Position numbers and translations under genes: made by a program. From IMG/VR virus record IMGVR_UViG_3300027763_000029: a stretch of DNA of 64,000 nt; one strand, written 5' to 3'. Origin of the DNA: a virus. Below are positions 21,046 through 44,324 of this stretch, piece after piece. Position 1 is the first letter of the stretch. Each line of letters opens with the position of its first letter. The notes under the pieces are model-generated. The model saw only the letters and a list, made by a program, of their open reading frames with translations. It had not been told where the DNA came from and ran no database searches.

Positions 21046-22168
21046 TCAAGCAAAACTGAAATACGTTTCAGATGCTTTATGTGAAAATATTGAAGAACTT
21101 CTAGACACTCTAGGAATAGAGGGGTATAAGAATCTTGGTAAGCTTATTGCTATGAGTTGTCCAATTCATGGTGGAGATAATGAGTCTGCACTTAATATTT
21201 ATCATCAAGGTGACTCATATAGAGGTAACTGGAAGTGTAGAACTCATCAGTGTGAAGAAACATTTAAAGGATCAATTATAGGATTCATTAGAGGATGTTT
21301 ATCTCACAATACTTATGGTTGGGTAAAGTCTGGAGATAAGCTATGCTCATTCAAAGAAGCGCTAGATTTTGCAACAGCTTTTATACGAGAAGATTTTTCT
21401 AGCATAAAGATATCGAGAAAAGCTAAAGAAAAAACGGCCTTTGTTAATACGGTTAAATACATTAGCAACAATAATCAAGACGATAGTCCAAAGATATCAA
21501 AAGATGTAATTAGGAGAAGTCTATCTATTCCTTCTGATTATTTTCTTAACAGAGGATTTTCCGCCCTAACTCTGAACAACTATGATGTAGGAGACTGTCG
21601 GGTTCAAGGTAAAGAGATGAATGGGAGGGCCGTGGTTCCGATATACGACCCTGATTTTAAATACATGGTCGGTTGTACCGGACGAAGTATATATGAGAAA
21701 TGCCCACAATGCAAAGCATACCACGACCCAAAAACAAGCTGTCCATCTGCTGATTCTTTATGGAAATACTCAAAATGGAGACATAATACTGGATTTAAAA
21801 CCCAAGAACATTTGTATAATTTTTGGATTGCACAGCATAGAATCAAAGAAACATCATGCGTTATTCTTGTTGAAAGCCCAGGAAATGTTTGGAGATTGTC
21901 TGAAGCGGGTATACTTAATGCTGTAGCAATATTTGGCTCATCATTGAGTGATCGTCAGAAAATGATTTTGGACACTTCTGGTGCCATGACCATTATTACT
22001 ATAATGGACAATGACGATGCTGGTCAAAAGGCGGCTATTCAAATAAAGCAGAAATGCGAAAAAACATATAATATCAAAAATATCTCTCCTAGTAAAGAAG
22101 ACATAGCTTCAATGAGTATTGAAGAAATTAATAACGAAATTAAACCTCTAATTAAAGACTTTATATGA
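21014..22168 (+). CDS. dnaG: DnaG-like DNA primase (CHC2 Zn finger plus TOPRIM)
   Basis: CPIHGGDN...WKCRTHQC, LVESPGN and MDNDDAG. The start could be 21002 or 21014. Confidence 0.85.
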   Translation: MNKIKKSHSYDQAKLKYVSDALCENIEELLDTLGIEGYKNLGKLIAMSCPIHGGDNESALNIYHQGDSYRGNWKCRTHQCEETFKGSIIGFIRGCLSHNTYGWVKSGDKLCSFKEALDFATAFIREDFSSIKISRKAKEKTAFVNTVKYISNNNQDDSPKISKDVIRRSLSIPSDYFLNRGFSALTLNNYDVGDCRVQGKEMNGRAVVPIYDPDFKYMVGCTGRSIYEKCPQCKAYHDPKTSCPSADSLWKYSKWRHNTGFKTQEHLYNFWIAQHRIKETSCVILVESPGNVWRLSEAGILNAVAIFGSSLSDRQKMILDTSGAMTIITIMDNDDAGQKAAIQIKQKCEKTYNIKNISPSKEDIASMSIEEINNEIKPLIKDFI

Positions 22169-22887
22169 TCATAGGATTTTCAGGAAAAAAGCAGTCGGGC
22201 AAGAGTACATCGAGCAATTTTATAATCTCCCTATTTATTGCTCAATTAGAAATAGCTCAAAAGGTATCAATAAATCCAAATGGACAAATAGTAGTTTCGG
22301 ATCTTTTAAATGATAGAAACTATGCTGGAATATTCGATCTATCTAATATTAATAGAAATGACTTTATACTAAATAAGGTAGTTGAAAAATTAGAGAAACA
22401 CATTAAAGTATATAGTTTTGCTGATCCACTAAAAAAAGATATTTGTATGAATATCCTGGGACTAACGTATGAACAATGTTATGGATCAGATGAAGAAAAA
22501 AATACCTTAACAGACTTAACATGGGATGATAAACAGCTTTCTGGAAGAGAGGCTATGGAAATTATTGGAACCAATATTTTTCGTACTCTTAAAAATAATG
22601 TTTGGGTAGAAGCAACCATAAAAAAGATCAAAGAAGAAAAACCTTCCATAGCTATTATCGCTGACTGTAGATTCCCAAACGAAGCTGATAGTATTAAGAC
22701 AGAGGGTGGTAAGGTACTTAGATTAACCAGAAATCCTTTTAATTCATCAGCCAAAGCTGAAGTAGCATTGGATAAAGAAAACTATGATTGGTCTAATTTT
22801 GATTATATTTGCGATAATGAAAATATGAACATATATGATCAATGCATGGATATACAAAAATTTTTACAGGAGATTCTACCATTATAG
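22165..22887 (+). CDS. Deoxynucleoside monophosphate kinase
   Basis: MIIGFSGKKQSGKST, SFADPLK and IADCRFPNE. Confidence 0.85.
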   Translation: MIIGFSGKKQSGKSTSSNFIISLFIAQLEIAQKVSINPNGQIVVSDLLNDRNYAGIFDLSNINRNDFILNKVVEKLEKHIKVYSFADPLKKDICMNILGLTYEQCYGSDEEKNTLTDLTWDDKQLSGREAMEIIGTNIFRTLKNNVWVEATIKKIKEEKPSIAIIADCRFPNEADSIKTEGGKVLRLTRNPFNSSAKAEVALDKENYDWSNFDYICDNENMNIYDQCMDIQKFLQEILPL

Positions 22888-23924
22888 TCACATACTTTAG
22901 AAGTAGTTCATATAACACACACTCAATGTGCGAGCAGCAATATTTTCTCGAATATGTTCTTGGCTATCGTGGTCCATCGGGCCAAAAAGCCGATAAAGGA
23001 ACCATAGTTCATAAAGTCTTAGAAATACTAGCAGTTATAAAAAAGGCACAGCAAGATGATGTTAAAGTTATCGATGATGATGTGGTAGGAAAAGTAAATA
23101 TCTCAAACTATAGCTTGAATGTTATTATAGAGGAAGTATATAAGCATTATTCAGAAGCTAATTCTCATCACAAGTGGGCATTGAAAGACTATAAAGATTG
23201 TCACGCATGGGTTTACAAAGCAATAGAATTTAATGATGGTATGTTCGATCCAAGGAATAGACATATACTATGTCCAGAGCAACATTTTGATATCGAGATT
23301 AAAAAACCTTGGGCAGCATATTCTTATGATACTCCAGAAGGTAAGCTAGAAGGTAATTTGGGTATTAAGGGTACTATAGACCTTATAACCTTAGTAAACG
23401 ACAATACTATTGAAATTATTGACTGGAAAACTGGTAGAAGATTAGATTGGGCGACTGGTAAGGAAAAGACCTTAGAAAAACTACAGACTGATCCACAGTT
23501 AAGAATATATCATTATGCTATTAGTCATTTGTATCCTCACATAGACCACATTATATTTTCTATCTATTTTATCAATGACGGTGGACCTTTTTCGATATGT
23601 TTTGATAAATCAGATCTTTCTAAGACAGAGGATATGTTACGTCAAAAATTTGAGGTGGTTAAGAATACAAGAAGGCCAAGACTTAATAAAACTTGGATGT
23701 GTACAAAATTATGCCATTTTGGTAAAACAACATTCGACAATACTCACATACAACCGCAAGTAGAATATAGAGAAAATCAAACTTGCAGTCTTGGTTCAAC
23801 AATGACAAAATGTGAACAAATTAAACATGATATTGATCTGAATGGTATGGATTCTGTTGTAAAAGAGTATAAGAATAAGAATCACTCATTTGCAAAGTAC
23901 AAAGCACCCGGAACCACAGAATGA
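22881..23924 (+). CDS. Cas4/RecB-like PD-(D/E)XK exonuclease
   Basis: SSSYN..SMCEQQY, GTIVHKVLE, GTIDL, IIDWKTG, QLRIY and C-terminal Cys. The start is uncertain: ATT 22881 after AGGAG, or ATG 22842. Confidence 0.8.
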   Translation: MIVTYFRSSSYNTHSMCEQQYFLEYVLGYRGPSGQKADKGTIVHKVLEILAVIKKAQQDDVKVIDDDVVGKVNISNYSLNVIIEEVYKHYSEANSHHKWALKDYKDCHAWVYKAIEFNDGMFDPRNRHILCPEQHFDIEIKKPWAAYSYDTPEGKLEGNLGIKGTIDLITLVNDNTIEIIDWKTGRRLDWATGKEKTLEKLQTDPQLRIYHYAISHLYPHIDHIIFSIYFINDGGPFSICFDKSDLSKTEDMLRQKFEVVKNTRRPRLNKTWMCTKLCHFGKTTFDNTHIQPQVEYRENQTCSLGSTMTKCEQIKHDIDLNGMDSVVKEYKNKNHSFAKYKAPGTTE

Positions 23925-23936
23925 TATTTCGGTCGC

Positions 23937-23964
23937 TTGACAACACCCGTTCGTATCGTACAAT
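23937..23964 (+). promoter_or_regulatory. Sigma70-type promoter for dnaE
   Basis: TTGACA (23937-42), 16-nt spacer, TACAAT (23959-64). Confidence 0.7.
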
Positions 23965-23984
23965 ACATCGAGTCAGTTTCTCAT

Positions 23985-24076
23985 TGACCCACCCCCAAAA
24001 TACCAAAAGAAGGAAAATAAAAGATGGACGTGAATAAGAGGTATATTCCTCTGCACGTCCATTCTTAAGTGGGTCA
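23985..24076 (+). other. Structured RNA element spanning the dnaE leader, first segment and 11-nt insert
   Basis: TGACCCAC (23985-92) pairs with GTGGGTCA (24069-76), ATGGACGTG (24024-32) with CACGTCCAT (24054-62), and AGAGG (24037-41) with CCTCT (24048-52). Confidence 0.7.
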
Positions 24077-25909
24077 CACTACTCACTTTTGGATGGACTA
24101 TCTAAGCCTGCACAAATTGCAAAAAGATGTAATACTCTTGGAGTAACTTCGTGTGCAATTACTGACCACGGAACAATATCTGGAACTGTGCAGTTTTACC
24201 AGTCAATGAAATCTAATGGTATCAAACCCATTTTAGGTTGTGAACTATATATCAGCGAAGATGATTCTCACATAAAGACTAAAGAAAATAGTAAGCTTGG
24301 ACATTTTATAGTTTTAGCTAAGAATAAAAAGGGATGGGCTAGTTTAATCAGAATAATATCTGAATCTAATAGTAAGCATAATTTTTATCATAAGCCAAGA
24401 TTGAGCTTTAATAGATTACAAGAATTCTTAGATGGTAATCTAATTGGTTTTTGTGGTCACTTAGGATCAGTATTAGCAAATAAGATACTAAGATCCAAAG
24501 ATGATTCCGAAAAAGAAGCTATTGAAATGATAGCTAAGATGAAGGATATGTTTGGTAAAGATAATTTCTTTCTAGAGTCTCAACTCATGGATAGAGAACA
24601 TATACCAGAACAGATTCAGTTAACAGATTTGATAAGAAAACTTGGATCAATAACTAAAACAAAAGTAATATGCACACCAGATGCTCATTATTGCGATAAA
24701 TCTGATGCTGTTGATCAAAGGATCCTTTTATGTAATAATCTAAAGACTACTCTTGTTGATATCAATAAAAAGATACTTAATAATGAAGATGTTCCTATGG
24801 GATGTTTTTTTAAGTCAGATAATTATTACATATTGTCTCCAGAAGAAATGGCTGATTTACACACTCAAGAAGAAATAGATAATACTAATCATGTAGATTC
24901 TATGATAGAGTCATATGATATTCTAAATAAACCTGCTCTTCCAAATTTTGAATGTCCAAAAGGATTTAATCCAGATGAATATCTAAGAGAATTATGCAGA
25001 AATGGTTGGAGAGATAAGATAGCCAATAATATTCCAAAGGATAAACAACAAATCTATGTTGATAGAATTAAGGAAGAATTGGATGTTTTGCAGGGCGCTG
25101 GGCTGTCCAGCTACTTTCTTATCATTCAAGACATACTTAACAATGTAAAGTCTAATAATTGGCTTCCGGGACCAGGAAGAGGATCTGCTGCTGGATGTTT
25201 AGTATCCTACTTAATAGGAATTACTGCTATAGATCCTATAAAGTATGATCTATTGTTCAGTAGATTTTATAATTCTGGTCGAAATACTGCTGACCGTATT
25301 TCCATGCCAGATATAGATGTTGATGTACCAATTAACAAAAGAGAAGAAATCATCTCATATATTAAAAATAAGTATGGAAGCAATAAGGTATCTCAAATGA
25401 TAACTTATAATACTATGAAAGGCCGTGGAGCCTTAAAGGAAGTATTAAGAGTATATGGCAACGTGGCATTTGAAGAGATGAATCGTATAACAAAATACAT
25501 CCCGGATGAAGCAAAAATTGCAGACGAATTGCAAGAAATGAAAGAAGATACTGGCGAAGCATCCATTATTCGTTGGGCATTAGAAAACAATGTTGACAAA
25601 CTCAAGGAGTGGTGCTATATTAATGAGGAAGGAGAATTAGCCGGTCCTCTGGCCAAGCGTTTTGAACAGGCTATTCGTTTGGAAGGAACTAAATCTAATC
25701 AATCAAAACACGCTGCTGGTATTGTAATTAGTATAGATGAATTGAGTAATGTTTGCCCCATGATTTATGATTCAAAAAATGATCAACTTATTGCGGGCAT
25801 GGAAATGCAGGACCTGGAATCTTTGGGTGTAATTAAATTTGATATTCTAGGCGTAGCTATGCTAGATAAGATTATGACTATTTCTGACCTATTAAAAAAT
25901 GGAGAATAA
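24024..25909 (+). CDS. dnaE: DNA polymerase III alpha, N-terminal part (PHP plus catalytic core), with the reading frame interrupted by an 11-nt insert near 24066-24076
   Basis: AAGGA SD, then ATG 24024 giving MDVNKRYIPLHVHS*. HYSLLDG resumes at 24077 in another frame. AITDHG, TPDAHY, GPGRGSAAG, SMPDIDVD and KFDILG follow. Confidence 0.9.
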
Positions 25910-25911
25910 CC

Positions 25912-26088
25912 ATGGAAAAGACTTTCGGTGAAGTAGCGGTAGGAGAAAATTTTAGCGTAAATGGTTCTGAGTATACCAAGGTAAATGCTGTAAAAGTTAG
26001 TTGTTGTCAGTCTATTAATGCTCATTTGGTAGATGACGCTAACTCAAGAGTATTTTTTACCGATAACCTAATGGTGGTGGTCAATTAA
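25912..26088 (+). CDS. 58-aa hypothetical protein missing from the ORF track
   Basis: GGAG SD, MEKTFGEVAVGENFSVNGSEYTKVNAVKVSCCQSINAH...VVVN*, and TAATG overlap with the exonuclease. Confidence 0.7.
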   Translation: MEKTFGEVAVGENFSVNGSEYTKVNAVKVSCCQSINAHLVDDANSRVFFTDNLMVVVN

Positions 26089-26783
26089 TGCCTAATTTTC
26101 AAAAAATTTGTGTTTTCGATCTGGAGACTGACGGTATTAATCCAGAGAAATGTAGTCCTGTTCAGATAGCTGCCATAATTATAGATCCTCTTAAACTACA
26201 AGTAGTGCCAGACTCCGAGTTTAATATTAGTATTAAGCCAGAAGCATTGATAGATAATCCAGAATATGACTATGCAGATAGTGATGTGTTGGATTTTCAT
26301 GCAAAGGTGAGAGGTTCTTCTAAAGAGGATATTCTAAAAGAATGGAAGTCTTATCAGAAGCAGGATCATGGATGGAAAATGTTTACATCATACCTGGATA
26401 TGTATCATACAAGATCCGAAAGAAAATCTTGTTTTAGTGCTCCCATTGCTGCGGGATATAACATAAATAGGTTTGATCTGAAAATTATTGAGAGACTTAG
26501 TACAAAATATGACAATCTCAATAAAGAGGGCAAGTCTAGTCTATTTTATCCTAGAGATGTTGTAGACTTGATGAATATGGTATTTTATTGGTTTGAAGGT
26601 AACAATGAGCTTAAAAATTATACTCTAGATAATCTTAGAGATTATTTAGGTATATCAAAAGAAGGTGCTCATGATGCTCTGAAAGACGTAAAAGATACTG
26701 CTGATATATTAATTAGGTTTTTAAAATTGCATAGGAATTTATCTAACAAGATAAAATTTAAGGGGTCATTTGCGAATGTCTGA
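26088..26783 (+). CDS. DEDDh 3'-5' exonuclease (DnaQ/epsilon-like)
   Basis: VFDLETDG, AGYNINRFD and HDALKD. Confidence 0.9.
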   Translation: MPNFQKICVFDLETDGINPEKCSPVQIAAIIIDPLKLQVVPDSEFNISIKPEALIDNPEYDYADSDVLDFHAKVRGSSKEDILKEWKSYQKQDHGWKMFTSYLDMYHTRSERKSCFSAPIAAGYNINRFDLKIIERLSTKYDNLNKEGKSSLFYPRDVVDLMNMVFYWFEGNNELKNYTLDNLRDYLGISKEGAHDALKDVKDTADILIRFLKLHRNLSNKIKFKGSFANV

Positions 26784-28398
26784 TTTTTTTGCGTTTGATT
26801 GCGGTTGTAAGTTTAAAGTAATAGACAATTCTGGCGATATTCCAAAAATAGATTTCTCTGCTAATATAGAGAATCTTAATTTGGAGTGTCACAGAACTTG
26901 GGACTTGATATCCGAAGGTAATACTAAAGGATGTTTTCAGTTGGAGTCTAGGCTCGGGCAAATGATGGCTAAAAAACTTAAGCCAGAAAATATTGAACAG
27001 TTATCTGGGTTGATAGCTATTCTTAGACCAGGATGCTTAGAGTCTGTAAGAGATGGCAAGAGTATTACCAATCATTATATAGATAAGAAAAATGGATTGG
27101 AAAGTATTGACTATTTTCATATGGCATTAGAACCAGCATTAAAGACAACATATGGAGAGATGATATACCAAGAAGAGAGTATGCAGATCGCCCATGATAT
27201 TGCAGGATTTGATCTGCAGGAAGCTGATATGTTAAGAAAGGCTATTGGAAAAAAGAAGCCAGAAGAAATGGCTAAATTGAAGAAAAAATTCTTAACAGGA
27301 TCCAAAGAAAAGAATATCGTAACAGAGGATCAGGCAGAAGAAATCTTTGGCTGGATTGAAAAATCACAAAGATACTCTTTCAATAAGTCACACAGTATAA
27401 GTTATGCTATGAACGCATATCTCTCAGCTTATACAAAAGCACACTTCTCCAGGATATTCTTTGCATCATATTTAAAGTTTGCTAAAGACAAGATAGATCC
27501 TCAGCAAGAGATAAAAGAATTGGCAAGAAATGCTAATGAGATGGGTATTGATGTTAGATTACCAGATCTACGCAATCTTAATAAGAATTTCTTCATTAAA
27601 GATAAGAATATATATTTTGGATTAACAGATATCAAAGGTGTTGGAGATTCTGTATTTAAAAAGTTGCTAGAACTTAATGAGCAAAAAGATATTAGTTCAT
27701 TAGGATATATTCAAAGCATCTGTCACATATTACTGAATATTAACTCAACAGCTGCAAAAGCTCTTGTTGGTAGTGGCGCTCTGGATTATTTTAGAAAAAA
27801 TAGAACTGAAATACTTTTTCATTACGAAATATTGTCATCTCTAACCAAGAAAGAGTTAGAACTATTTGCGGGCCTTATAAGTGATAAGCCTACATCAGAT
27901 ATAAAGGTCGTACTACAAGCATTGCTTAATGAAAAGATAACAAAAAAGAGAATAGAGCCAATTTCTAACTTAATAAGATCACTGGAGCATCCTCCTTATT
28001 CATTAACAGATAAGATAGAATGGTTATCTGATTCAGAAAACTCTTTTCTGGGTGTAGCCATATCTTGCTCTAAATTAGACTCTTATGATATTAGTATGAC
28101 CAATACTAATTGTAAAGAATTTAAAACTACGCTACTATCAGAAAAAATAATCTTAGCCGGTGAAGTTAGCAATGTAAATATTATTAAGACAAAAAAGGGA
28201 AAAAATCCAGGACAAGAAATGGCATTTGTTAGTGTTGAAGATGCTTATGGTCTATTGGATTCTGTTATCTTTTTCCCGGAACAATTAGAGACATATAAGC
28301 ACCATCTATTCCAAGGTAATGTGCTAATTTTTATTGGCAACAAAACAAAAACAAAGGATGGTTTGGTTGTCGATAAGTGTTTTACGCCGAGATCTTGA
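26776..28398 (+). CDS. dnaE: DNA polymerase III alpha, C-terminal part (fingers, HhH, OB fold)
   Basis: GCFQLES, ILRPG, IYQEE, ADMLRKAIGKK, YSFNKSHS, IKGVG and MAFVSVED. Confidence 0.9.
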   Translation: MSDFFAFDCGCKFKVIDNSGDIPKIDFSANIENLNLECHRTWDLISEGNTKGCFQLESRLGQMMAKKLKPENIEQLSGLIAILRPGCLESVRDGKSITNHYIDKKNGLESIDYFHMALEPALKTTYGEMIYQEESMQIAHDIAGFDLQEADMLRKAIGKKKPEEMAKLKKKFLTGSKEKNIVTEDQAEEIFGWIEKSQRYSFNKSHSISYAMNAYLSAYTKAHFSRIFFASYLKFAKDKIDPQQEIKELARNANEMGIDVRLPDLRNLNKNFFIKDKNIYFGLTDIKGVGDSVFKKLLELNEQKDISSLGYIQSICHILLNINSTAAKALVGSGALDYFRKNRTEILFHYEILSSLTKKELELFAGLISDKPTSDIKVVLQALLNEKITKKRIEPISNLIRSLEHPPYSLTDKIEWLSDSENSFLGVAISCSKLDSYDISMTNTNCKEFKTTLLSEKIILAGEVSNVNIIKTKKGKNPGQEMAFVSVEDAYGLLDSVIFFPEQLETYKHHLFQGNVLIFIGNKTKTKDGLVVDKCFTPRS

Positions 28399-28422
28399 CA
28401 ATCACATGCCATCGATTATCAT
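28395..28422 (+). promoter_or_regulatory. Sigma70-type promoter for ssb
   Basis: TTGACA (28395-400), 16-nt spacer, TATCAT (28417-22), with TAAGGAG SD downstream. Confidence 0.6.
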
Positions 28423-28473
28423 ATGTTATCGTGTTCGTTTGGTTTGGTTTAAATTTTTAATTAAGGAGATGAT

Positions 28474-28854
28474 ATGAATATCACGATTTTGAGAGGTAAT
28501 TTAGCAAGAGATCCTGAGCTAAGAGTCGTTAATACTGGCGGCAAGCAGACTTCTGTTGTTAATTTTACCGTAGCTGTCTCTAGGGAATATACTAAGGCTA
28601 GTGGTGAAAAGGATAAGGTAACTTCATTTATTAATTGCGAAGCATGGGACAGTGGTGCTGAGATCATAGGATCTTCATTTAAGAAGGGTGATCTGGTTCT
28701 AGTAGAAGGATCTCTACGCAATGATACGTGGGAAAAGGATGGCGTTAAGCATAGTAGTCTAAAGGTTAGAGTTAATAATTTCTCTAAGATTACTAAGTTG
28801 TCAAAGCAGGGCAAGGGCGAACAAGCGGAACCTGCTGAGTCCGTTGCTTTCTGA
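28474..28854 (+). CDS. ssb: Single-stranded DNA-binding protein
   Basis: GNLARDPELR, FINCEAW, KKGDLVLVEGSL and an acidic tail ending in Phe. Confidence 0.95.
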   Translation: MNITILRGNLARDPELRVVNTGGKQTSVVNFTVAVSREYTKASGEKDKVTSFINCEAWDSGAEIIGSSFKKGDLVLVEGSLRNDTWEKDGVKHSSLKVRVNNFSKITKLSKQGKGEQAEPAESVAF

Positions 28855-28880
28855 TTAGGATATTTAGAATATAATTTCAT

Positions 28881-28912
28881 AAAGATGGGGGCGGTAAAAC
28901 GCCCCTATTTTT
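28881..28912 (+). terminator. Rho-independent terminator after ssb
   Basis: GGGGCG-GTAAAA-CGCCCC followed by TATTTTT. Confidence 0.8.
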
Positions 28913-28931
28913 ATCTTCCCTCTTTATTATT

Positions 28932-30596
28932 ATGAATAAATCAAAACTTAAAATACTCATGGTTTCTGAAGCCAGCTTTCTTAGCTCTGGCTTTTCAATT
29001 TATACTAGAGAAATCCTATCTCGACTGTATAAGACTAACAAGTATGACATAGCAGAATTTGCTTCTTATGGCATGGTAAATGATGCAAGAGATAAGAATA
29101 TACCTTGGAGATACTATGCTAATGCAGTCAAGGAAGATGATCCAAGACACAAAGAGTATACTTCGAGGGGAGATAATCAATTTGGTAGATGGAGATTTGA
29201 AAAAGTCTTATTAGATTTTAAGCCAGATGTTGTGATAGATATTAGGGATTATTGGATGAGTTCGTACCAAGCACTATCGCCTTTAAGAAAATTCTTTCAT
29301 TGGATACTTATGCCAACAGTTGACTCCGCTCCACAGCAGGAAGAGTGGATAGACACATTTCTCTCTGCCGACAGTATTTTTACTTATTCTGATTGGGGTG
29401 CCAATGTTCTAAAAGATCAAAGCTCAGGCAAGATAAATTATATAGATACCGCATCCCCTGGGGTTGATCTCTTTACGTTTCATCCAGTAAAAGACAAAAA
29501 ATCTCTAAAAGAAGAGTATGACATACCTAATGACAGCATAGTCATAGGATCAGTTATGAGAAATCAAAAAAGAAAATTGATACCAGAACTTATGGTTTCT
29601 TTTAGAAAAGCTATGGATATCTTGAAAGAAGAAAATAATCCGCTGGGTAAAAAAATATATTTGTATATTCATACAAGTTATCCTGATGCTGGTTGGGATC
29701 TGCCAGAACTTTTAAAAGAACACAGACTAGCTAACAGAGTACTATTTACATATCTATGTAGACGTTGTGGTAATATGAGTTCAAGTGTCTTTGTAGGACC
29801 ACAAAAAGTATGTTCAAGATGTTTGGAAAAAAGCATGACATTCTCCTCTGTAACAAATGGAATATCAACTGAACAGCTAGCTAAGGTCTATAATCTATTC
29901 GATGCTTATGTACAATATTCCATATGCGAAGGTTTTGGATGCCCACAAACAGAAGCAGGAGCTTGCGGATTACCAATATTTACAGTTGATTATAGTGCAA
30001 TGTGCGATATTGTAAAAAAGCTAGATGCTGTTCCTATTAGTCCAAAATCATACTTTAAAGAACTTGAAACAAAAGCAATAAGAGTTTATCCAGATAATGA
30101 ACAATTAGCAAATGAAATAGTTAAATTATGCAATATGTCAGACTCAGAGAGATCGGCTATAGGCCAAAAGACTAGACAGCTTACAGAAAAATACTATAAT
30201 TGGGATGACATAGCAAAAAAATGGGAAAATCATTTGGATCATATAGACAGTACCTATAGATCAGACTGGCACAGTTCAGCAACATTTATGAATAAAATTG
30301 AAAAAGAAATAGACACAAATAGCAGTCAGCATTTTGATAATACAGCAAAATTATGCTTTAGTCATCTAAAAGATATAGACAAGATATCATCTATGAGCAT
30401 ACTAACTTTGTTACAATATGTAGATTATGGCTTTTCTATGCATGGGTCTAATATTACTAAGCATGAATATGATGATATAGTAACATATATAAATACATAC
30501 ATAGACAATATAAATCATTCAGATAAGGTTAGATCTGAAAATATTAAATTCAATGACGACTTCATACAATATGCATCAATCAAGGCAAACACATAA
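28932..30596 (+). CDS. GT-B (GT4-like) glycosyltransferase with a Zn-ribbon insertion
   Basis: KILMVSE, VMRNQKRK, YNLFDAYV and EGFGCPQTEAGACGLP, with CRRC...CSRC inserted. Confidence 0.85.
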   Translation: MNKSKLKILMVSEASFLSSGFSIYTREILSRLYKTNKYDIAEFASYGMVNDARDKNIPWRYYANAVKEDDPRHKEYTSRGDNQFGRWRFEKVLLDFKPDVVIDIRDYWMSSYQALSPLRKFFHWILMPTVDSAPQQEEWIDTFLSADSIFTYSDWGANVLKDQSSGKINYIDTASPGVDLFTFHPVKDKKSLKEEYDIPNDSIVIGSVMRNQKRKLIPELMVSFRKAMDILKEENNPLGKKIYLYIHTSYPDAGWDLPELLKEHRLANRVLFTYLCRRCGNMSSSVFVGPQKVCSRCLEKSMTFSSVTNGISTEQLAKVYNLFDAYVQYSICEGFGCPQTEAGACGLPIFTVDYSAMCDIVKKLDAVPISPKSYFKELETKAIRVYPDNEQLANEIVKLCNMSDSERSAIGQKTRQLTEKYYNWDDIAKKWENHLDHIDSTYRSDWHSSATFMNKIEKEIDTNSSQHFDNTAKLCFSHLKDIDKISSMSILTLLQYVDYGFSMHGSNITKHEYDDIVTYINTYIDNINHSDKVRSENIKFNDDFIQYASIKANT

Positions 30597-37399: not shown

Positions 37400-40300
37400 C
37401 TATCTCCAGTACGGCTGCTGATTCTGGAATGATGGGCAGGATAAAATGTACTTCCAATTGGTGCCAAAACCCCCTCCATTTACATTTACTTTTACTTCGT
37501 CTATGCCAGAAGGCTTAAGAAAAGTATAGTATGCTATATTGCTGACATATTGAGAATTAAACTGTTCTGATCCGTTATACTCTATAGTGAATTTGTCTGG
37601 TTTAGTAGAAGCATCCCATGAAAGTGTCATCCATCCAGAATCTGCGGGTACTGGGTAGGTATGTGTAATTAATCCACTACCAATAATAGATTGGACATTA
37701 CCACAAGGAACTATGCCAGATTGTATATTTGGTCTAGTATCTATATAATACTCATATGGTATCCACTCCCACGCCTCCAGAGTATCCATATATCTAGTAT
37801 TTTTATGTTCTATACCATCTATACTACCAAAAAATCCTCTGTATAGCATCTCGTTTTGCAATACCATAAAATCACTAGGTATAACGTATTTTCCTGCTGG
37901 ATCTATACATTGCCAGCAAACAAAATTATTAGCCAACTGACCGACGGAACTATAAGTTGAGCCTGGAGGTTTTACCAGATTTCCTTTTTTATCAAAAGTA
38001 TACTTAGTATATCTTTCAGAATCGATACTCTTAATTTTTCTAGGCATGTTTCTAAATTTAATTTTCAGATTATTCGTTAAGTTTAAAACGTCCTTAATTT
38101 TTTTATTACCGATAGATTTTTCTCTACTACCTAAAGGTCTTATATACTCTTCTCTCATTTGAATAACATTATCTTTAACATTATCTCCCAAAGAAATAAT
38201 TAGTTTTTTACTAGCTCCTGTTTTAAGATTCAAATCTCCATAAACAAGATTCTCTGACTTATCCCATAAAAGAGCAGGGGAATTAGACCATATAATATTA
38301 GGATATAGTGTTTTATACTCAGCAATTTTCTCAGCAATTTTTGCGTCTGATGTTGTATAAGTTACTGTACTCCCAACTCTTTCAAAATTCTCATCTATAC
38401 CATTAGTTATGTTAGCATTAATTGGAGGTAATATCTGTGAATCATCACCAACTACATTACCAACTATTGATCCTATCTCATATGAAGTTTTATATGGTAT
38501 TTTTATAGATATCTCTTCGGCTAATCTACAAGGCTTTTCTGGATCAATATGAATCCAATATAAGTCTCTATTCTCTTTATATGAGACTGTAATAGTATTA
38601 GCTTCTGGTGGTAGATTTGGTCCAGTATTTACAACTATACTTCCAGATATGTAAGGCATAATCTCATCAGATGTTGTGCATAAAGATAGCGCCATCTGTA
38701 GATTAGTTTTTTCTCTTGTAAGATTGACGAGAGTTTGTTTTGCTTCCATCTTTAAACAAATACCCGTATCATATGTTTGTTTATTTAGACAGGAAGCTGG
38801 GTCATTAGATAGATTATTATAATACTTTAAACTGGAAGGAATTATACCAGTACAAAGCAGATCTAACCTATTACGTATGGTATCTTTATCTGTAGGGCTA
38901 AAATTTATTATACTGTTTCTAGTATAATCATTTTCTATATAGATTTCCCCGGAAAATGGAATGCCCGTAAACTGAATAGACTTAATACATACCATGACAG
39001 GCTCAGATTTATCGGCAAAAGACGTTGATCTTAAATTTTTAATCAACTGATTTTCTATCTTATCTTTACTAAAAACATCATCAGTACTTTCAAAAATATA
39101 ACGCAAGTCATTTTTTGTGTAAGACCAACCCCTTAATTGATCCTTATTAGGATCATTGGGATCCTCAGTAAAATCAAAAGGATAGACTGTTCCTATGTTA
39201 TCAATAATATCTATGTGATTAAATTTTAACCTATCATTAATTTGATTGTTAAAAATATCTTTTGTATTTTGTATTTTACTATAATCTGGACTTACTGTAT
39301 AGAGTTTATCTTGTATTAGAAGATCTGTTCCCCATCCTATGCTACCTTCACTATATGTAGTAATGTGAGATTCTGGATTGATTGGACCAAAAGATTCTGT
39401 TAAACTATTACTAAAAGCCCAGCTATTAATAGGGAATTTTTCTGATGACCTTGTAGTAGTATCGTCTCTATATAAGAATAAGGTATCAGCGACACCACTT
39501 GGCTTAGTAATATATCCATTTGTTCCTACTCCAGCGCTAAGTACAAATAGGGTTTTATATCCATTAACAGTAGATATAATATGCTTACTTTTGATATAGA
39601 CACTATTATCGTCTATGGTAGATACTTTTATATATTGAGAGACATCAAAAAAGTCAAATGCTCTCGTTCCATCTACTAAAATTTCTTTTTTATCATTAGT
39701 ATCAGATACTATATCTTGTTCAGACCATGAGGGATCATAATTATTCTGTAAGAATATTGGATTTATTGAGATAGGTATTTTATCCCAAGCCGTTTCTTTA
39801 ACAACGTAATATCCGTTTTGTGTAGGTTCTGTTTGATTTTTAACATACACTATATCGTTCTTATAGAAAGGAGCCATATCAGATAGTATAATGCCAGTAC
39901 CAGATAATTGTTCTATATTAAATGTTGTAGATTGAATAACTGATGATAGTTTCAGATCATTATAAGTATTTATTATAGTATAATTAAAATGTGATAATTG
40001 AGGTATATTTTTTTCTGCTAATTTAATAAATTTGTATTTATTTTTTGATAAAGGTGGAGTATTTATATATCTAAATATTGGTGTCTCAAAATAATACCAT
40101 TCAGCACCATTATTACTAGCACACACTATAGCTGTGTTAGCATCACCAAAAGATAGATTAGAGTATATTGGCTTATAATACTGAGCATCACTGGCTATAG
40201 TTTGATTAAAGAACCTAACATCAGTAAAATAATTAATAATAGGATCAGCGCGACCACCATTAGACATAAAAGAACTTACCATAGCCAATGCTTGAAGACC

Positions 40301-43300
40301 ACCAACTACGCCCGCAAGACCTAGTGACATTGCGGATAGTCCGATCATAGCGTATGGTAAAAGAGAAGGAAATGTTGGTATCTGACTAGATATTCCTCGA
40401 TACATATCCGGATCACAATTAAAACAAGTATTTATATTTGCAAAATATGGATAAGGAGCATTTATATTAACACTAGGTATCAAGTAATTTTTATTAGTAA
40501 AATCTCCAATAAAATTAACGCCACTGGAAGGATTATATGGATTTACAGGAGAAAATGCAGAATAATCTATATATCCTAAAATATCTTTAGCTATAGGTTG
40601 ATGTATATCGTCAGTATGAACAATGATCTCCCAACTACATAAACTATCAGATACAGAAGATGAATAATGCTTATTCTCTGTAGAAGATAATCCTGCTACG
40701 CTATCATTGATTAATAGGTTATCTAAAATAGTATTAGTATAGTCTATTGGATCAATAAAAGAAAAATTTATTGTAAATTCAGTACCAGTTAATGGTATGT
40801 TATAAAATTTAAGAAATGAATTTCCGGCAGTATTTATATTGTTAGTTTTAATTATACTACTATAAATTTGAGAATCTATATCATTATATCCGGTAGCAAC
40901 AACTGTCGGTTGTATGATTCCATAATTATTTAATTGTTCTTTTAGTGGAGATTTGATATAGTTATTATCTATACTTTTTGATGTACTAATATACTTATCA
41001 GCATGATCAGAGAACTTAAAACTAAAATTTGTATTATAGTTAGATATATTTTCTTGATTCAGTAAGTATAATCTTGCAGTACCATTGGAAGGTATGGCAT
41101 TACCCGTATTCATATTTCCTAATGCTGATAAATACATATTCGCTTGACTATTATTTGTGAATCCATTAAAATTTGATTTGATAAAAAACTTATTGTCATT
41201 TGGTAATGAGTCCCTTGAAAACCTGGGGTTTTTAACATCTAACCATACAACCAAGTTTTTAGGATTAACATAGTTCAAAAAATTCAATTTGACTTCTAAA
41301 TCTTTGATAACTAAGTGTGAAATACCTGTTGTGGGTATTCCATAAGTAATAGAAGATCTCAAACAGCCATCAGATATCAGATTATTTCTACTTTCATCTT
41401 GGATCGGAATATTTGGGCTACTATTTAAATTATCATAATCAAGATTATTCCACTTGATAGAATCAAAGCCATATTTATTCCCTATTGCGATATCGGATGT
41501 TAACAGATTTTCATTTATTATTATTGTAGATTGATGTACTAAATTTTGTCCATCCATTGATGGTTTTAAATACATCAGTCCTGGTCCACTGAAAGCAAAT
41601 GATTTCTGTCTATCAAGATTATTAGATATTACACACGATTGATTTAAATAGCCAAAGCTACCATTATCTTTTATCCATCCAGAGCTGGGGTGGAAATGCC
41701 CTCGTCTAAAATCAACATAATGTCCATCTCCTGTTGGTAAAACTTCTTTAAGATGACAATACTTTCCTGTCCCAGGAATTAAATAAAAATTGTTTCTAGA
41801 TAAAAGTATTGGCATTTCTAAAGATTCTGGCTGAGGATGTCCAGATATTTTAATACCAAGATTATCTACTACCTTAGTATCGTATCCGCCATAGGGTAAG
41901 ATTTGTGGAGATAAAGTTGTGGAGATCAGTGGGGTAGTGTACGATACTTTACTATTGGTTCTTCCATTTGTAGAAATAGAATCATGATAATAGAATGTTG
42001 TTGTATCTCGATATTTTCTAACATAACTAGAAGCTCCCAACTCAACATTGTCCGCCAACCTAATTTTTTTATCTGCTACTACTTGTTCTTTAAAAAATGA
42101 TTTACATTGAGAATACTTATTATCTCTATCTCTCATATTCTCTATCTGTATGCTCAATAATAATATTTTAGTATTATTTGGATAAAAAGATAGTTTTAAA
42201 TTTGCATCTTGATTCATCAATGTTACTTCTTGACCATCTATATTAAAATCTAATTGAACATCTCTAAGTTTTGTAACATTTAACCGATCAAAATTTACTT
42301 CGTTAGTTTCTCCATCATCATAATAGTTATCAGAATCTACTATCCATAAAAGACCTCTTTTATTAAAAGCTACCTGTTTAAAAACCCCATTTATTATCTT
42401 ATTATTAACAGAAGGTGCTGGTGGGGTTATTGAAGAATTTAGTGGTTCAGTATCTGATGTGGTGATCTTTAATATGTCAGATTGTGAAACTCCTCCAGTT
42501 GTTGTTCTTGTTGCTTTAATTTCATAAGTTCCAGTAGAAAAAATATGGATGTCTGGGGTAGGATCTGATGATGTAGGATATGCTGTTACTTGATAGGCTT
42601 TTATCCCGGCTTTATTTATGTCTTTAAATTTCAAACAATTGGGTCCACTTATTTTTTCCCATAGATATGAATAATCCTCACTTCCTGGACTTGGATTAAC
42701 ATCATATCCTTTGATTACAGACTGATTACTAAAGTTAGAAATTCTTATTCCACTACCCAAATAGAATGTGTCAGCTATTGGTGCTCGTAGAGATATATCA
42801 GCTAATGGAATATACCCAGTAGTTGCAAAATTATTTGCTCTAATATTTATAACTGATCCTGATGTAGTAATATCTGTTAAATATTTTATATTACCAATTT
42901 CTATGGAACTATTATTATATATTGAACTAGTTGCCGGTATATTTTTATCATACATTCCAATCGAAGACAAAGATAAAAAAGCATGAGGTCCATTACTTAT
43001 TGGTTTTTTCAAGCTTAAACCAATATCACTCACTATGGAAAGATATGGAGGATATTTACCTAATAGTTTTTTAACCAAATCTAATTTTGATTGTATATAA
43101 TTATTTCTATTATGTCTTTTATATATATGATATGATATTTTTTTGTATTTATTGAATATGATATTTAGTATTTTTTTGAGTTCTTTTATATCTGTATTAT
43201 CGCCAGTATCAGTAATATCTAGATTGATATACGTTGTTACCGCATTATAGATTTCATCATCATTTAAAATATTTATTGTAGTTCTATCTATGATAGGAGA

Positions 43301-44323
43301 ACTACTAAGGAAATAGCATAATTTTTGTAATGCTAAACTTTGTTTCTTATTATAAGAATACGCTGATCCACGAAGTCTGCGTAATGTTAGTGTATGATAT
43401 ATTTCTCTATATACTGGATATAATGAAGGAGATAGGTATGTGTTAGAATTTTCTAAATTAGTTTTACTCCTTATGGAAGCTATTTCAGTTTCATAATATG
43501 AAAAACATTCACCATCTGGAATCCATAAATCATAAAAAGATGGAGGGGTATTGCTATTTTCTGGTATATATTTTATTCCTTTAGTTAGTACATAATAATG
43601 AGAACCACTAGGTTGACTTCCAATATTTATTGTCTGTATTTCACTGTTAAAGCTAACATTCAAACCAGTAGAATATGGATCATTACTATTTTGTATTAGT
43701 GCAGATTTTTTATTCAATAAACTAATAGTTTTATCATTGATTTTAACCCCATAATCACCACTGCTTAAATTCATTCCTTTGTATGTATATGTTCCTGTCC
43801 AGGATATTATAGTACTGATTGGTATGTCTTGATAGTCTAGAGTACCTCTACTACTATATGGAGCACTATTTTTTTTATACCAAAATAATAAACCATATTC
43901 TGGTTTAATAGTTGTACTCATAGTCGATACGAACCAATTAGAGCTCATATCTATACTTTTGAATCCTGTACCTGATGGAGAAGGTAGTTCTGTATTCCAG
44001 TTTTTAAATTTTGATTCAAAGCTTACAGCATTTTCTACCCCTAAAATATTATTGTGTATTTGCTGTTTACCAAAAAATGGCTTATTAGCTAAGAATTTTT
44101 CACCAGTTATAAGTACTGGAGTCCAAACTTCAGGATCGACACTATTATCTATAAGTCCAGTAATCGCTTCCATTCTCACGGATACTGGTTTCACTCCAGT
44201 TTCCGATTCATATTTTATATAGGTATCTCCATTAATATCGTCTATTAATCTATATTGTTCTAAATCTTGAAAAAAAGAATTATTAAAAATATTGCAGTGC
44301 TTAATATTATTTATCTTGTACAT
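37400..44323 (-). CDS. Giant (2307 aa) putative virion/tail protein
   Basis: Long ORF with a PKD-like YLWEKISGP, a P-domain-like IKDLEVKLNF, and the tail-fibre motif DIVYVKNQTEPTQNGYYVV. Confidence 0.65.
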   Translation of the reverse strand: MYKINNIKHCNIFNNSFFQDLEQYRLIDDINGDTYIKYESETGVKPVSVRMEAITGLIDNSVDPEVWTPVLITGEKFLANKPFFGKQQIHNNILGVENAVSFESKFKNWNTELPSPSGTGFKSIDMSSNWFVSTMSTTIKPEYGLLFWYKKNSAPYSSRGTLDYQDIPISTIISWTGTYTYKGMNLSSGDYGVKINDKTISLLNKKSALIQNSNDPYSTGLNVSFNSEIQTINIGSQPSGSHYYVLTKGIKYIPENSNTPPSFYDLWIPDGECFSYYETEIASIRSKTNLENSNTYLSPSLYPVYREIYHTLTLRRLRGSAYSYNKKQSLALQKLCYFLSSSPIIDRTTINILNDDEIYNAVTTYINLDITDTGDNTDIKELKKILNIIFNKYKKISYHIYKRHNRNNYIQSKLDLVKKLLGKYPPYLSIVSDIGLSLKKPISNGPHAFLSLSSIGMYDKNIPATSSIYNNSSIEIGNIKYLTDITTSGSVINIRANNFATTGYIPLADISLRAPIADTFYLGSGIRISNFSNQSVIKGYDVNPSPGSEDYSYLWEKISGPNCLKFKDINKAGIKAYQVTAYPTSSDPTPDIHIFSTGTYEIKATRTTTGGVSQSDILKITTSDTEPLNSSITPPAPSVNNKIINGVFKQVAFNKRGLLWIVDSDNYYDDGETNEVNFDRLNVTKLRDVQLDFNIDGQEVTLMNQDANLKLSFYPNNTKILLLSIQIENMRDRDNKYSQCKSFFKEQVVADKKIRLADNVELGASSYVRKYRDTTTFYYHDSISTNGRTNSKVSYTTPLISTTLSPQILPYGGYDTKVVDNLGIKISGHPQPESLEMPILLSRNNFYLIPGTGKYCHLKEVLPTGDGHYVDFRRGHFHPSSGWIKDNGSFGYLNQSCVISNNLDRQKSFAFSGPGLMYLKPSMDGQNLVHQSTIIINENLLTSDIAIGNKYGFDSIKWNNLDYDNLNSSPNIPIQDESRNNLISDGCLRSSITYGIPTTGISHLVIKDLEVKLNFLNYVNPKNLVVWLDVKNPRFSRDSLPNDNKFFIKSNFNGFTNNSQANMYLSALGNMNTGNAIPSNGTARLYLLNQENISNYNTNFSFKFSDHADKYISTSKSIDNNYIKSPLKEQLNNYGIIQPTVVATGYNDIDSQIYSSIIKTNNINTAGNSFLKFYNIPLTGTEFTINFSFIDPIDYTNTILDNLLINDSVAGLSSTENKHYSSSVSDSLCSWEIIVHTDDIHQPIAKDILGYIDYSAFSPVNPYNPSSGVNFIGDFTNKNYLIPSVNINAPYPYFANINTCFNCDPDMYRGISSQIPTFPSLLPYAMIGLSAMSLGLAGVVGGLQALAMVSSFMSNGGRADPIINYFTDVRFFNQTIASDAQYYKPIYSNLSFGDANTAIVCASNNGAEWYYFETPIFRYINTPPLSKNKYKFIKLAEKNIPQLSHFNYTIINTYNDLKLSSVIQSTTFNIEQLSGTGIILSDMAPFYKNDIVYVKNQTEPTQNGYYVVKETAWDKIPISINPIFLQNNYDPSWSEQDIVSDTNDKKEILVDGTRAFDFFDVSQYIKVSTIDDNSVYIKSKHIISTVNGYKTLFVLSAGVGTNGYITKPSGVADTLFLYRDDTTTRSSEKFPINSWAFSNSLTESFGPINPESHITTYSEGSIGWGTDLLIQDKLYTVSPDYSKIQNTKDIFNNQINDRLKFNHIDIIDNIGTVYPFDFTEDPNDPNKDQLRGWSYTKNDLRYIFESTDDVFSKDKIENQLIKNLRSTSFADKSEPVMVCIKSIQFTGIPFSGEIYIENDYTRNSIINFSPTDKDTIRNRLDLLCTGIIPSSLKYYNNLSNDPASCLNKQTYDTGICLKMEAKQTLVNLTREKTNLQMALSLCTTSDEIMPYISGSIVVNTGPNLPPEANTITVSYKENRDLYWIHIDPEKPCRLAEEISIKIPYKTSYEIGSIVGNVVGDDSQILPPINANITNGIDENFERVGSTVTYTTSDAKIAEKIAEYKTLYPNIIWSNSPALLWDKSENLVYGDLNLKTGASKKLIISLGDNVKDNVIQMREEYIRPLGSREKSIGNKKIKDVLNLTNNLKIKFRNMPRKIKSIDSERYTKYTFDKKGNLVKPPGSTYSSVGQLANNFVCWQCIDPAGKYVIPSDFMVLQNEMLYRGFFGSIDGIEHKNTRYMDTLEAWEWIPYEYYIDTRPNIQSGIVPCGNVQSIIGSGLITHTYPVPADSGWMTLSWDASTKPDKFTIEYNGSEQFNSQYVSNIAYYTFLKPSGIDEVKVNVNGGGFGTNWKYILSCPSFQNQQPYWR

Positions 44324-44324
44324 A

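Follow-up and report, generated by a model that had tools for sequence, protein, structure and literature searches.

A stop-led gap of 6-12 nucleotides in the dnaE genes of environmental phages, probably passed by programmed translational bypass

How is a replicative polymerase made from a gene whose opening codons are closed off by a stop codon? The question is raised by the dnaE gene in a 64,000-nt stretch of DNA (the window) from IMGVR_UViG_3300027763_000029, a 151,782-bp virus record of IMG/VR; the window has a G+C content of 33.6% and uses the standard genetic code. Here an ATG preceded by a Shine-Dalgarno (SD) sequence opens a frame of 14 codons, the last of which is TCT, and this frame is closed directly by TAA. 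GTGGG and TCA follow, and from the next codon the long dnaE frame reads CAC TAC TCA CTT TTG GAT GGA (HYSLLDG) and goes on to encode the PHP and Pol III alpha palm domains (Table 1). We refer to the short open reading frame (ORF) as ORF1, to the long one as ORF2 and to the 11 nt between them, from the stop codon through the TCA, as the gap. The dnaE frame lies +2/-1 to the ATG frame and is open upstream only as far as 24038, and no ATG, GTG or TTG is present in it from 24038 to the TTG at 24089. A previous sequence-only reading of the window had set out the same arrangement, and every coordinate matched on re-reading. Based on a comparison of this locus with its relatives, we propose that the gap is passed by programmed translational bypass, a short ribosomal hop, and we put the probability of this reading at roughly 0.78.

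Deletion of the 11 nt gives an ungapped PHP motif, as in 30 distinct uninterrupted alleles, in which the start ATG overlaps the stop of the upstream gene. The motif of these relatives, M..Y.PLH.HSH[YF]SLLDG, is free of gaps in 30/30 and aligns ungapped to Taq Pol III alpha (2hpi). The earlier claim that removal of the 11 nt restores the PHP signature is thus borne out, as is the calculation that a simple -1 frameshift would insert four residues: the dnaE frame of the window is open across the gap and translates there as L-S-G-S.

A protein-guided scan of IMG/VR returned 58 loci, the 5' ends of which fell into two classes, interrupted and uninterrupted, and scans of IMG/VR and of Joint Genome Institute (JGI) metagenomes with DNA patterns raised the interrupted set to 45 distinct alleles from dozens of samples. 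All 45, from independent assemblies, carry a stop-led gap at the identical codon, a recurrence for which the sequence-only reading had proposed to look among related phages; the case that it had named as refuting, an insert unique to this genome in a decayed dnaE, is not what the alleles display. The genome is a single metagenome-assembled contig, so that an artefact of assembly or sequencing, or a decaying dnaE pseudogene, had to be considered. However, the same 11 nt are found in the independently assembled L002, L003 and L004 and in metagenome contigs, and the frame downstream runs intact for more than 600 codons, with 70-98% identity to relatives, which makes an artefact or a pseudogene barely credible. 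The comparison of sequences clearly indicates that the interruption is far beyond chance and is neither an assembly error nor a decayed gene.

At positions that the DNA patterns left free, ORF1 retains Tyr in 45/45 alleles, Pro in 43/45 and Leu in 45/45, the Leu via five codons, and the residues conserved in ORF1 are those of the uninterrupted proteins. These data firmly point to selection on ORF1 at the protein level and to translation of the short ORF as protein, and the true start of the PHP domain is the Y-x-P-L-H-x-H-S within it. On the other side of the gap, the HYSL codons lie ahead of the first possible start, the TTG at 24089, and this TTG is CTG in L004, L126 and L134; therefore, both sides of the gap encode one domain and there is no separate start for the second part. 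It could be argued that ORF1 is a regulatory leader peptide or a start-codon switch between two competing RNA helices (H1 and H2, below), with the polymerase starting at TTG 24089 or being complemented in trans by the 14-mer. Indeed, the AUG is hidden within H1, with which H2 competes, as in a typical translational switch, the polymerase is already divided into N and C genes, and in the protein database many relatives are called as 606 residues without the first PHP strand, the intact ones having 621-622. Against this, the HYSL upstream of the TTG matches the uninterrupted proteins (as judged on the alleles from the protein search, the DNA patterns having preset these codons), no SD lies ahead of the TTG, and ORF1 has changed synonymously while exactly the PHP-start residues, the two metal-binding His among them, were kept, which would be pointless for a mere leader. 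We regard a leader or switch as very improbable, and the 606-residue calls as shortened by the gene callers, with loss of two metal-binding histidines. The TTG was rejected as the true start on the same grounds (no SD, CTG in three alleles, HYSL upstream), in agreement with the sequence-only reading, which had found it unsuitable for want of a good SD and for the two PHP His that would be lost. The GUG after the stop was likewise rejected as a re-initiation codon; several alleles do not have it at all, the 10- and 11-nt alleles that do have it carry it out of frame, and it stands in frame in no more than a subset of the 9- and 12-nt alleles.

Counted from the stop through the landing codon, the gap measures 6 nt in one allele, 8 nt in three, 9 nt in ten, 10 nt in ten, 11 nt in 19 and 12 nt in two, and the frame relations 0, +1 and +2 are all represented. 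Gaps of 12-42 nt with the same flanks were also searched for, and just the two 12-nt alleles were found. The gap opens in 45/45 alleles with UAA (19) or UAG (26) directly 3' of UCY. UGA ends one third of the long ORFs of the genome, yet it is the gap stop in none of the 45 alleles, which hints that stops read by RF1 are preferred, as in gene 60 of phage T4. The codon preceding the resume His is UCU in 21 alleles, UCA in 11, UCC in three, ACU in nine and GCU in one; some alleles pair UCC with UCA, and at least two of the three positions are always pairable. The matched Ser landing codon of the sequence-only reading thus holds as UCN in 35/45 alleles but is not universal, and the ten ACU and GCU alleles imply that codon matching alone does not define the landing site. 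Two explanations at the level of decoding were tried and rejected. Genome-wide reassignment of a stop is not compatible with long ORFs that end in TAA (56), TGA (33) and TAG (13), nor with ORFs that reach 2307 codons under table 11. A suppressor tRNA or special tRNA-Ser encoded by the phage was dismissed because searches of the window and of the whole 151.8-kb genome found no tRNA genes.

The spread of gap lengths also bears on the possibility that each length class uses a conventional recoding event of its own, namely a -1 (or +2) shift for 8 and 11 nt, a +1 shift for 10 nt and readthrough for 6, 9 and 12 nt, to give a DnaE with 2-4 extra residues in the PHP motif. In most alleles, that of the window among them, no stop interrupts the dnaE frame within the gap, and +1 shifts are known to be stimulated by a stop codon that occupies the A site, but three separate mechanisms would be needed at one site, where there is no slippery heptamer or CUU-U type site and where the tRNA-Ser on UCU cannot re-pair at UUC or CUU. 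In one allele, L085/L108, a TGA stands in the dnaE frame, the entry frame, within the gap, so that a +1 shift at the stop cannot work there. The gap bases moreover co-vary as RNA pairs, not as codons, and the motif is ungapped between the H-x-H and the Asp metal ligands in each of the 30 uninterrupted relatives as well as in the Pol III alpha structure. In light of these data we find such a mixture of recoding events quite improbable; the three frames, the entry-frame stop and the constraint on the gap as paired RNA together mean that only a frame-independent mechanism fits all alleles.

Three RNA helices, H1, H2 and H3, are predicted around the gap. The 5' arm of H1 is formed by the first 9 nt of ORF1, which are the exact complement of the 9 nt preceding the take-off codon, and the stem-loop has a minimum free energy (MFE) of -18.9 kcal/mol (z -6.0). 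All nine pairs form in 41/45 alleles, and compensatory changes replace GUG:CAC by AUG:CAU and GAC:GUC by GCA:UGC or ACG:UGU. In a count over the alignment, 98% of the H1 cells are paired, against 24-46% with the partner slid; the MAFFT alignment gapped the 5' arm of four divergent alleles, the cells of which were left out of the 98% and are covered by an anchored count. The 30 uninterrupted alleles have none of the three helices; at the place of H1 they form 4.5/9 pairs, with a mean MFE of -1.3 kcal/mol compared with -17.5 kcal/mol in the interrupted alleles, and no gap-less allele retaining the H1 arms was found in the IMG/VR search. An N-terminal extension of three residues (MDV, MGV, MDM and others) is confined to the interrupted alleles, and it is the adaptable arm of H1.

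H3 starts at the second base of the stop codon, and within its loop, CACACU (24075-80), lie the second and third bases of the landing codon, followed by the codon at which decoding would resume. In this hairpin the gap co-varies with the Tyr/Ser/Leu codons downstream (GUGGG/ACUCAC, GAGAA/AUUCUC, GCGAA/AUUCGC, CGA/UCG), and in the 11-nt class 97.8% of the H3 cells are paired, against 32-53% when slid. Among the 9-nt alleles that were compared, an ACU landing codon gives H3 one more pair than UCU or UCA. H2, which encloses H3, is the consensus structure of RNAalifold; the segment with both helices (24053-24105) has a folding energy of -22.7 kcal/mol (z -7.65), and H2 and H3 fold alike in every interrupted allele. 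H1 and H2 have GUCCAU in common and are mutually exclusive. The 10-nt gap of L085/L108, UAGGUGAUCU, contains AGGUGAUC, which is fully complementary to the 3' end of 16S rRNA (extended anti-SD), and AGGUGA or AAGUGA occurs in many other gaps; such sequences could be an internal SD that aids landing or merely the arm of H3, and H3 pairing explains them equally well.

A conserved two-tier hairpin around the gap is also what an enzyme could recognise, and excision of the gap from the mRNA, as a micro-intron or by cutting and ligation at the H2/H3 hairpin, followed by translation of a continuous message, would likewise be independent of frame. Nevertheless, 6-12 nt is shorter than any known self-splicing or bulge-helix-bulge intron, no splice-site rule is common to the gap ends across the length classes, and a search of 23800-24300 against Rfam gave only a chance U7 match below threshold. 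Excision also leaves unexplained the invariable stop, the near-matched landing codon and the 5' stem-loop that ends at the take-off, all three of which bypass expects. We consider excision extremely improbable, and the micro-intron that the sequence-only reading had offered as its alternative is given up with it. No rival explains every length class and, at the same time, the stop, the near-matched landing codon and H1.

We propose the following course for programmed bypass at the window locus. Ribosomes would initiate at AUG 24024, synthesise MDVNKRYIPLHVHS and pause with peptidyl-tRNA-Ser on UCU and UAA in the A site, with H3 placed where the release factor would need to act. The peptidyl-tRNA would then release the UCU, the mRNA would slide by 11 nt, and the tRNA would re-pair at UCA, so that decoding restarts at CAC and a single polypeptide with the normal PHP motif, PLHVHS-HYSLLDG, results. 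The likely drive is H1, the 3' arm of which abuts the take-off codon while its partner, the start-codon region, would already be outside the ribosome; as H1 zips up, about 9-10 nt would be pulled from the ribosome, which is near the length of the gap. In free mRNA, the alternative helix H2 may hold GUCCAU and leave the AUG open. The sequence-only reading had likewise let the ribosome leave from UCU, with UAA in the A site, land on UCA and resume at CAC, and this fits all of the comparative evidence (gaps in three frames, an entry-frame stop, conservation on both sides, co-varying helices), although we infer the hop itself, as well as the roles of H1 and H3, from sequence.

More tentatively, and at somewhat less than even odds, we suggest that the H1 stem acts as a measured RNA spring that sets the slide distance in place of codon-anticodon scanning, and that the locus is a second, independently evolved phage bypass cassette, made by a homing endonuclease that split its own target in an unchangeable catalytic motif. 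A spring would explain why ACU and GCU are tolerated as landing codons and why the gaps cluster at 8-12 nt.

The neighbouring genes bear on the origin of the interruption. In L015 (11-nt gap) and L087 (9-nt gap) a protein of 240-245 residues with an HNH/endonuclease VII-like domain (PHROGs 3322, 374 and 1035) is encoded directly upstream; it also has an N-terminal helix-turn-helix, for which weak Pfam matches came from L015 only. The stop codon of its gene falls on dnaE codons 4-5, and the SD is part of the final codons of that gene. C-terminal remnants of the endonuclease are left in L115 (63 residues) and L102 (34 residues), so that among the 42 alleles with enough flank two adjoin a full endonuclease and two a remnant; a search of the window's genome found no homologue. 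On a tree built from 65 N-terminal DnaE proteins, the cassette must have been gained or lost at least 11 times. A single clade of interrupted alleles is rejected (delta lnL 453, approximately unbiased (AU) test p = 2.4e-6) for a group that was defined after the tree was seen. The patchy tree, together with the adjoining endonucleases and remnants, is the pattern of a homing cassette that later lost its endonuclease, as is the case for MobA and gene 60 (10.1101/2022.08.31.505936). The best explanation is that the SD, the new start with its three-residue extension, H1, the gap and H3 form a cassette that moves between related phages and originally did so with an HNH homing endonuclease. By analogy with MobA and gene 60, the gap probably splits the endonuclease target in the conserved PHP-coding sequence and would thereby protect against cleavage.

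Two further observations concern these loci. L112 retains a relic of the ancestral start, MNKYFPLHV, which overlaps the stop of the upstream gene about 90 nt before the cassette ATG, and this relic marks where, inside the H-x-H codons, the insertion has its left edge. A second HNH endonuclease gene, 29-32% identical, lies 1.1-1.7 kb upstream of dnaE in L002 (1249-1797) and L004 (1305-1811), the closest relatives of the window (DnaE 95-98% identical), and in the uninterrupted phage L051 (1428-1928); the window is without it and has a dNMP-kinase-like gene at 22165-22887.

Several points weigh against bypass as set out here, besides the late definition of the group in the AU test. The DNA patterns preset H-x-H-S, the stop, HYS and part of LLDG, so that conservation there is partly built in; the alleles from the protein search and the positions left unfixed are free of this bias. 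With ACU as the landing codon in nine alleles and GCU in one, plus the UCC-to-UCA pairs, landing would have to manage with two base pairs in about a quarter of alleles. The nascent chain at take-off has just 14 residues, much shorter than the peptide signal of gene 60 and prone to drop-off, H3 must melt before its own 5' arm passes the P site, and for gaps that keep the frame (6, 9 and 12 nt) readthrough of the stop codon could serve as well.

The coordinates of the locus and of the genes around it are collected in Table 1. The sigma-70-like promoter (TTGACA-16 nt-TACAAT) is located in a spacer of about 100 nt (23925-24009) that separates dnaE from the PD-(D/E)XK nuclease gene upstream; this spacer is specific to the subclade of the window (also L002, with L095 similar) and so is no constant part of the cassette. 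Other alleles have promoter-free spacers of 10-110 nt, with 10-40 nt from the upstream gene to the SD in most interrupted ones. The polymerase is split over 24024-28398 with no sign of an intein, and neighbouring genes overlap or abut. Elsewhere in the window, two adjacent giant ORFs of 2307 and 2300 residues (37400-51227, - strand) had no PHROG match. A blastn search of 23000-29000 against GenBank phages gave no match and no cultured relative.

Table 1. Positions of the sequence features, predicted helices and polymerase genes at the dnaE locus of the window.
Feature	Position	Strand	Details
Sigma-70-like promoter	23937..23964	+	TTGACA-16 nt-TACAAT; 11/12 consensus matches
Shine-Dalgarno sequence	24010..24014	+	AAGGA; 9 nt before ATG
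ORF1	24024..24065	+	14 codons, MDVNKRYIPLHVHS; opening three residues are an extension not in uninterrupted relatives
Predicted H1, 5' stem-loop	24024..24062	+	Outer 9 bp 24024-32 (AUGGACGUG) : 24054-62 (CACGUCCAU); inner 5 bp 24037-41 : 24048-52
Predicted H2, outer helix	24057..24098	+	24057-64 (GUCCAUUC) : 24091-98 (GGAUGGAC); encloses H3
Proposed take-off codon	24063..24065	+	UCU (Ser); UCU in 32/45 alleles, UCC in 13/45
Coding gap, 11 nt	24066..24076	+	Stop UAA 24066-68, GUGGG 24069-73, proposed landing codon UCA 24074-76
Predicted H3, hairpin	24067..24088	+	24067-74 (AAGUGGGU) : 24081-88 (ACUCACUU)
ORF2	24077..25909	+	Remainder of DnaE N-terminal protein (PHP + palm/NTPase); resumes at CAC
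DnaE-N (PHP + palm)	ends 25909
58-residue ORF	25912-26088		phrog_2183
Proofreading exonuclease	26088-26783		RNase_T/DEDDh
DnaE-C	26770-28398		Fingers, HhH, OB

To our knowledge, the only certain cases of natural programmed bypassing are T4 gene 60 with its homologues and those in the mitochondrion of one yeast, with Streptomyces phage phiHau3 as a candidate, and our literature searches found no report of bypass in dnaE. If the proposal is right, the alleles would constitute a non-homologous family of bypass elements in the replicative polymerase of abundant environmental phages, with 45 natural variants, a minimal gap of 6-12 nt and a compact system of about 75 nt, in which the trigger for take-off, the distance of the slide and the amount of pairing required for landing could be studied. 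It would also back homing endonucleases as drivers of the origin of bypass elements and, if the spring and endonuclease reading is true, the combination of endonuclease and bypass would be a general evolutionary solution and not an oddity of T4.

Bypass in T4 gene 60 and its MobA HNH homing-endonuclease cassette were reportedly described by Huang in 1988 and by Bonocora in 2011. In gene 60 the take-off codon is followed by a stop, a stem-loop forms at the A site and a 5' stem-loop forms from the exiting mRNA, in a gene associated with the MobA cassette (Manning and Atkins, 10.1101/2022.08.31.505936; Wills et al., 10.1101/2024.12.09.627546; Agirrezabala 2017, PMC5462505); the hairpin can occupy the A site (PMC5462505), and pairing of the mRNA that leaves the ribosome drives forward sliding (10.1101/2024.12.09.627546).

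The mitochondrial byp elements of Magnusiomyces capitatus (Lang 2014 and Nosek 2015, cited in PMC10732093) resemble the dnaE gap in being short mobile inserts in coding sequence that the ribosome skips, with matched take-off and landing codons and a hairpin. Unlike the dnaE gap, they are described as eukaryotic and organellar, 27-55 nt long and present in many copies per genome with a spread like that of GC clusters, and they are not known to have an endonuclease cassette or a 5' start-codon hairpin. The terminase gene of Streptomyces phage phiHau3, a candidate for bypass with inserts of 7-10 nt after UUA (Antonov et al. 2023, PMC10732093), is the nearest precedent for so short a gap, and 10-nt inserts are described for it (PMC10732093). 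There, too, a very short gap shifts the frame in a conserved phage protein, the argument is based on conservation across the junction, and a 5' stem-loop and a local structure that brings the landing codon near are present. However, its trigger is not a stop but the rare 'hungry' codon UUA, tied to the bldA tRNA of the host, and the type is known from three genes, compared with 45 alleles here, with no endonuclease link reported; it also has partial support from mass spectrometry in E. coli, whereas bypass in dnaE rests on the comparison of sequences.

It is T4 gene 60 that the dnaE locus resembles in most respects. In both, a large phage has one of its essential replication genes broken up, and a stop (mostly UAG) comes immediately after the sense codon of actual or proposed take-off. 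One stem-loop begins at the take-off or stop position and another forms, or would form, 5' from mRNA as it exits the ribosome. The take-off tRNA could usually read the landing codon as well, which for dnaE means UCN in 35/45 alleles, and an HNH endonuclease, for dnaE adjoining the cassette in a few alleles, is often lost later, with a patchy spread among relatives. The two differ in the interrupted gene, which here encodes the PHP motif of DnaE and not a topoisomerase subunit, with no homology in sequence, and in the gap, which is 6-12 nt here and 50 nt in gene 60. The dnaE site is at codon 14, leaving no room for a long nascent-peptide signal, its putative landing codon lies in the loop of the take-off hairpin with a first-position mismatch in 10/45 alleles, and the cassette comes with a new start codon, which makes up one arm of the 5' stem-loop. 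Taken together, the best reading is that the dnaE gap would be a short, non-homologous counterpart of T4 gene 60 and MobA, to which it does not appear to be related by descent.

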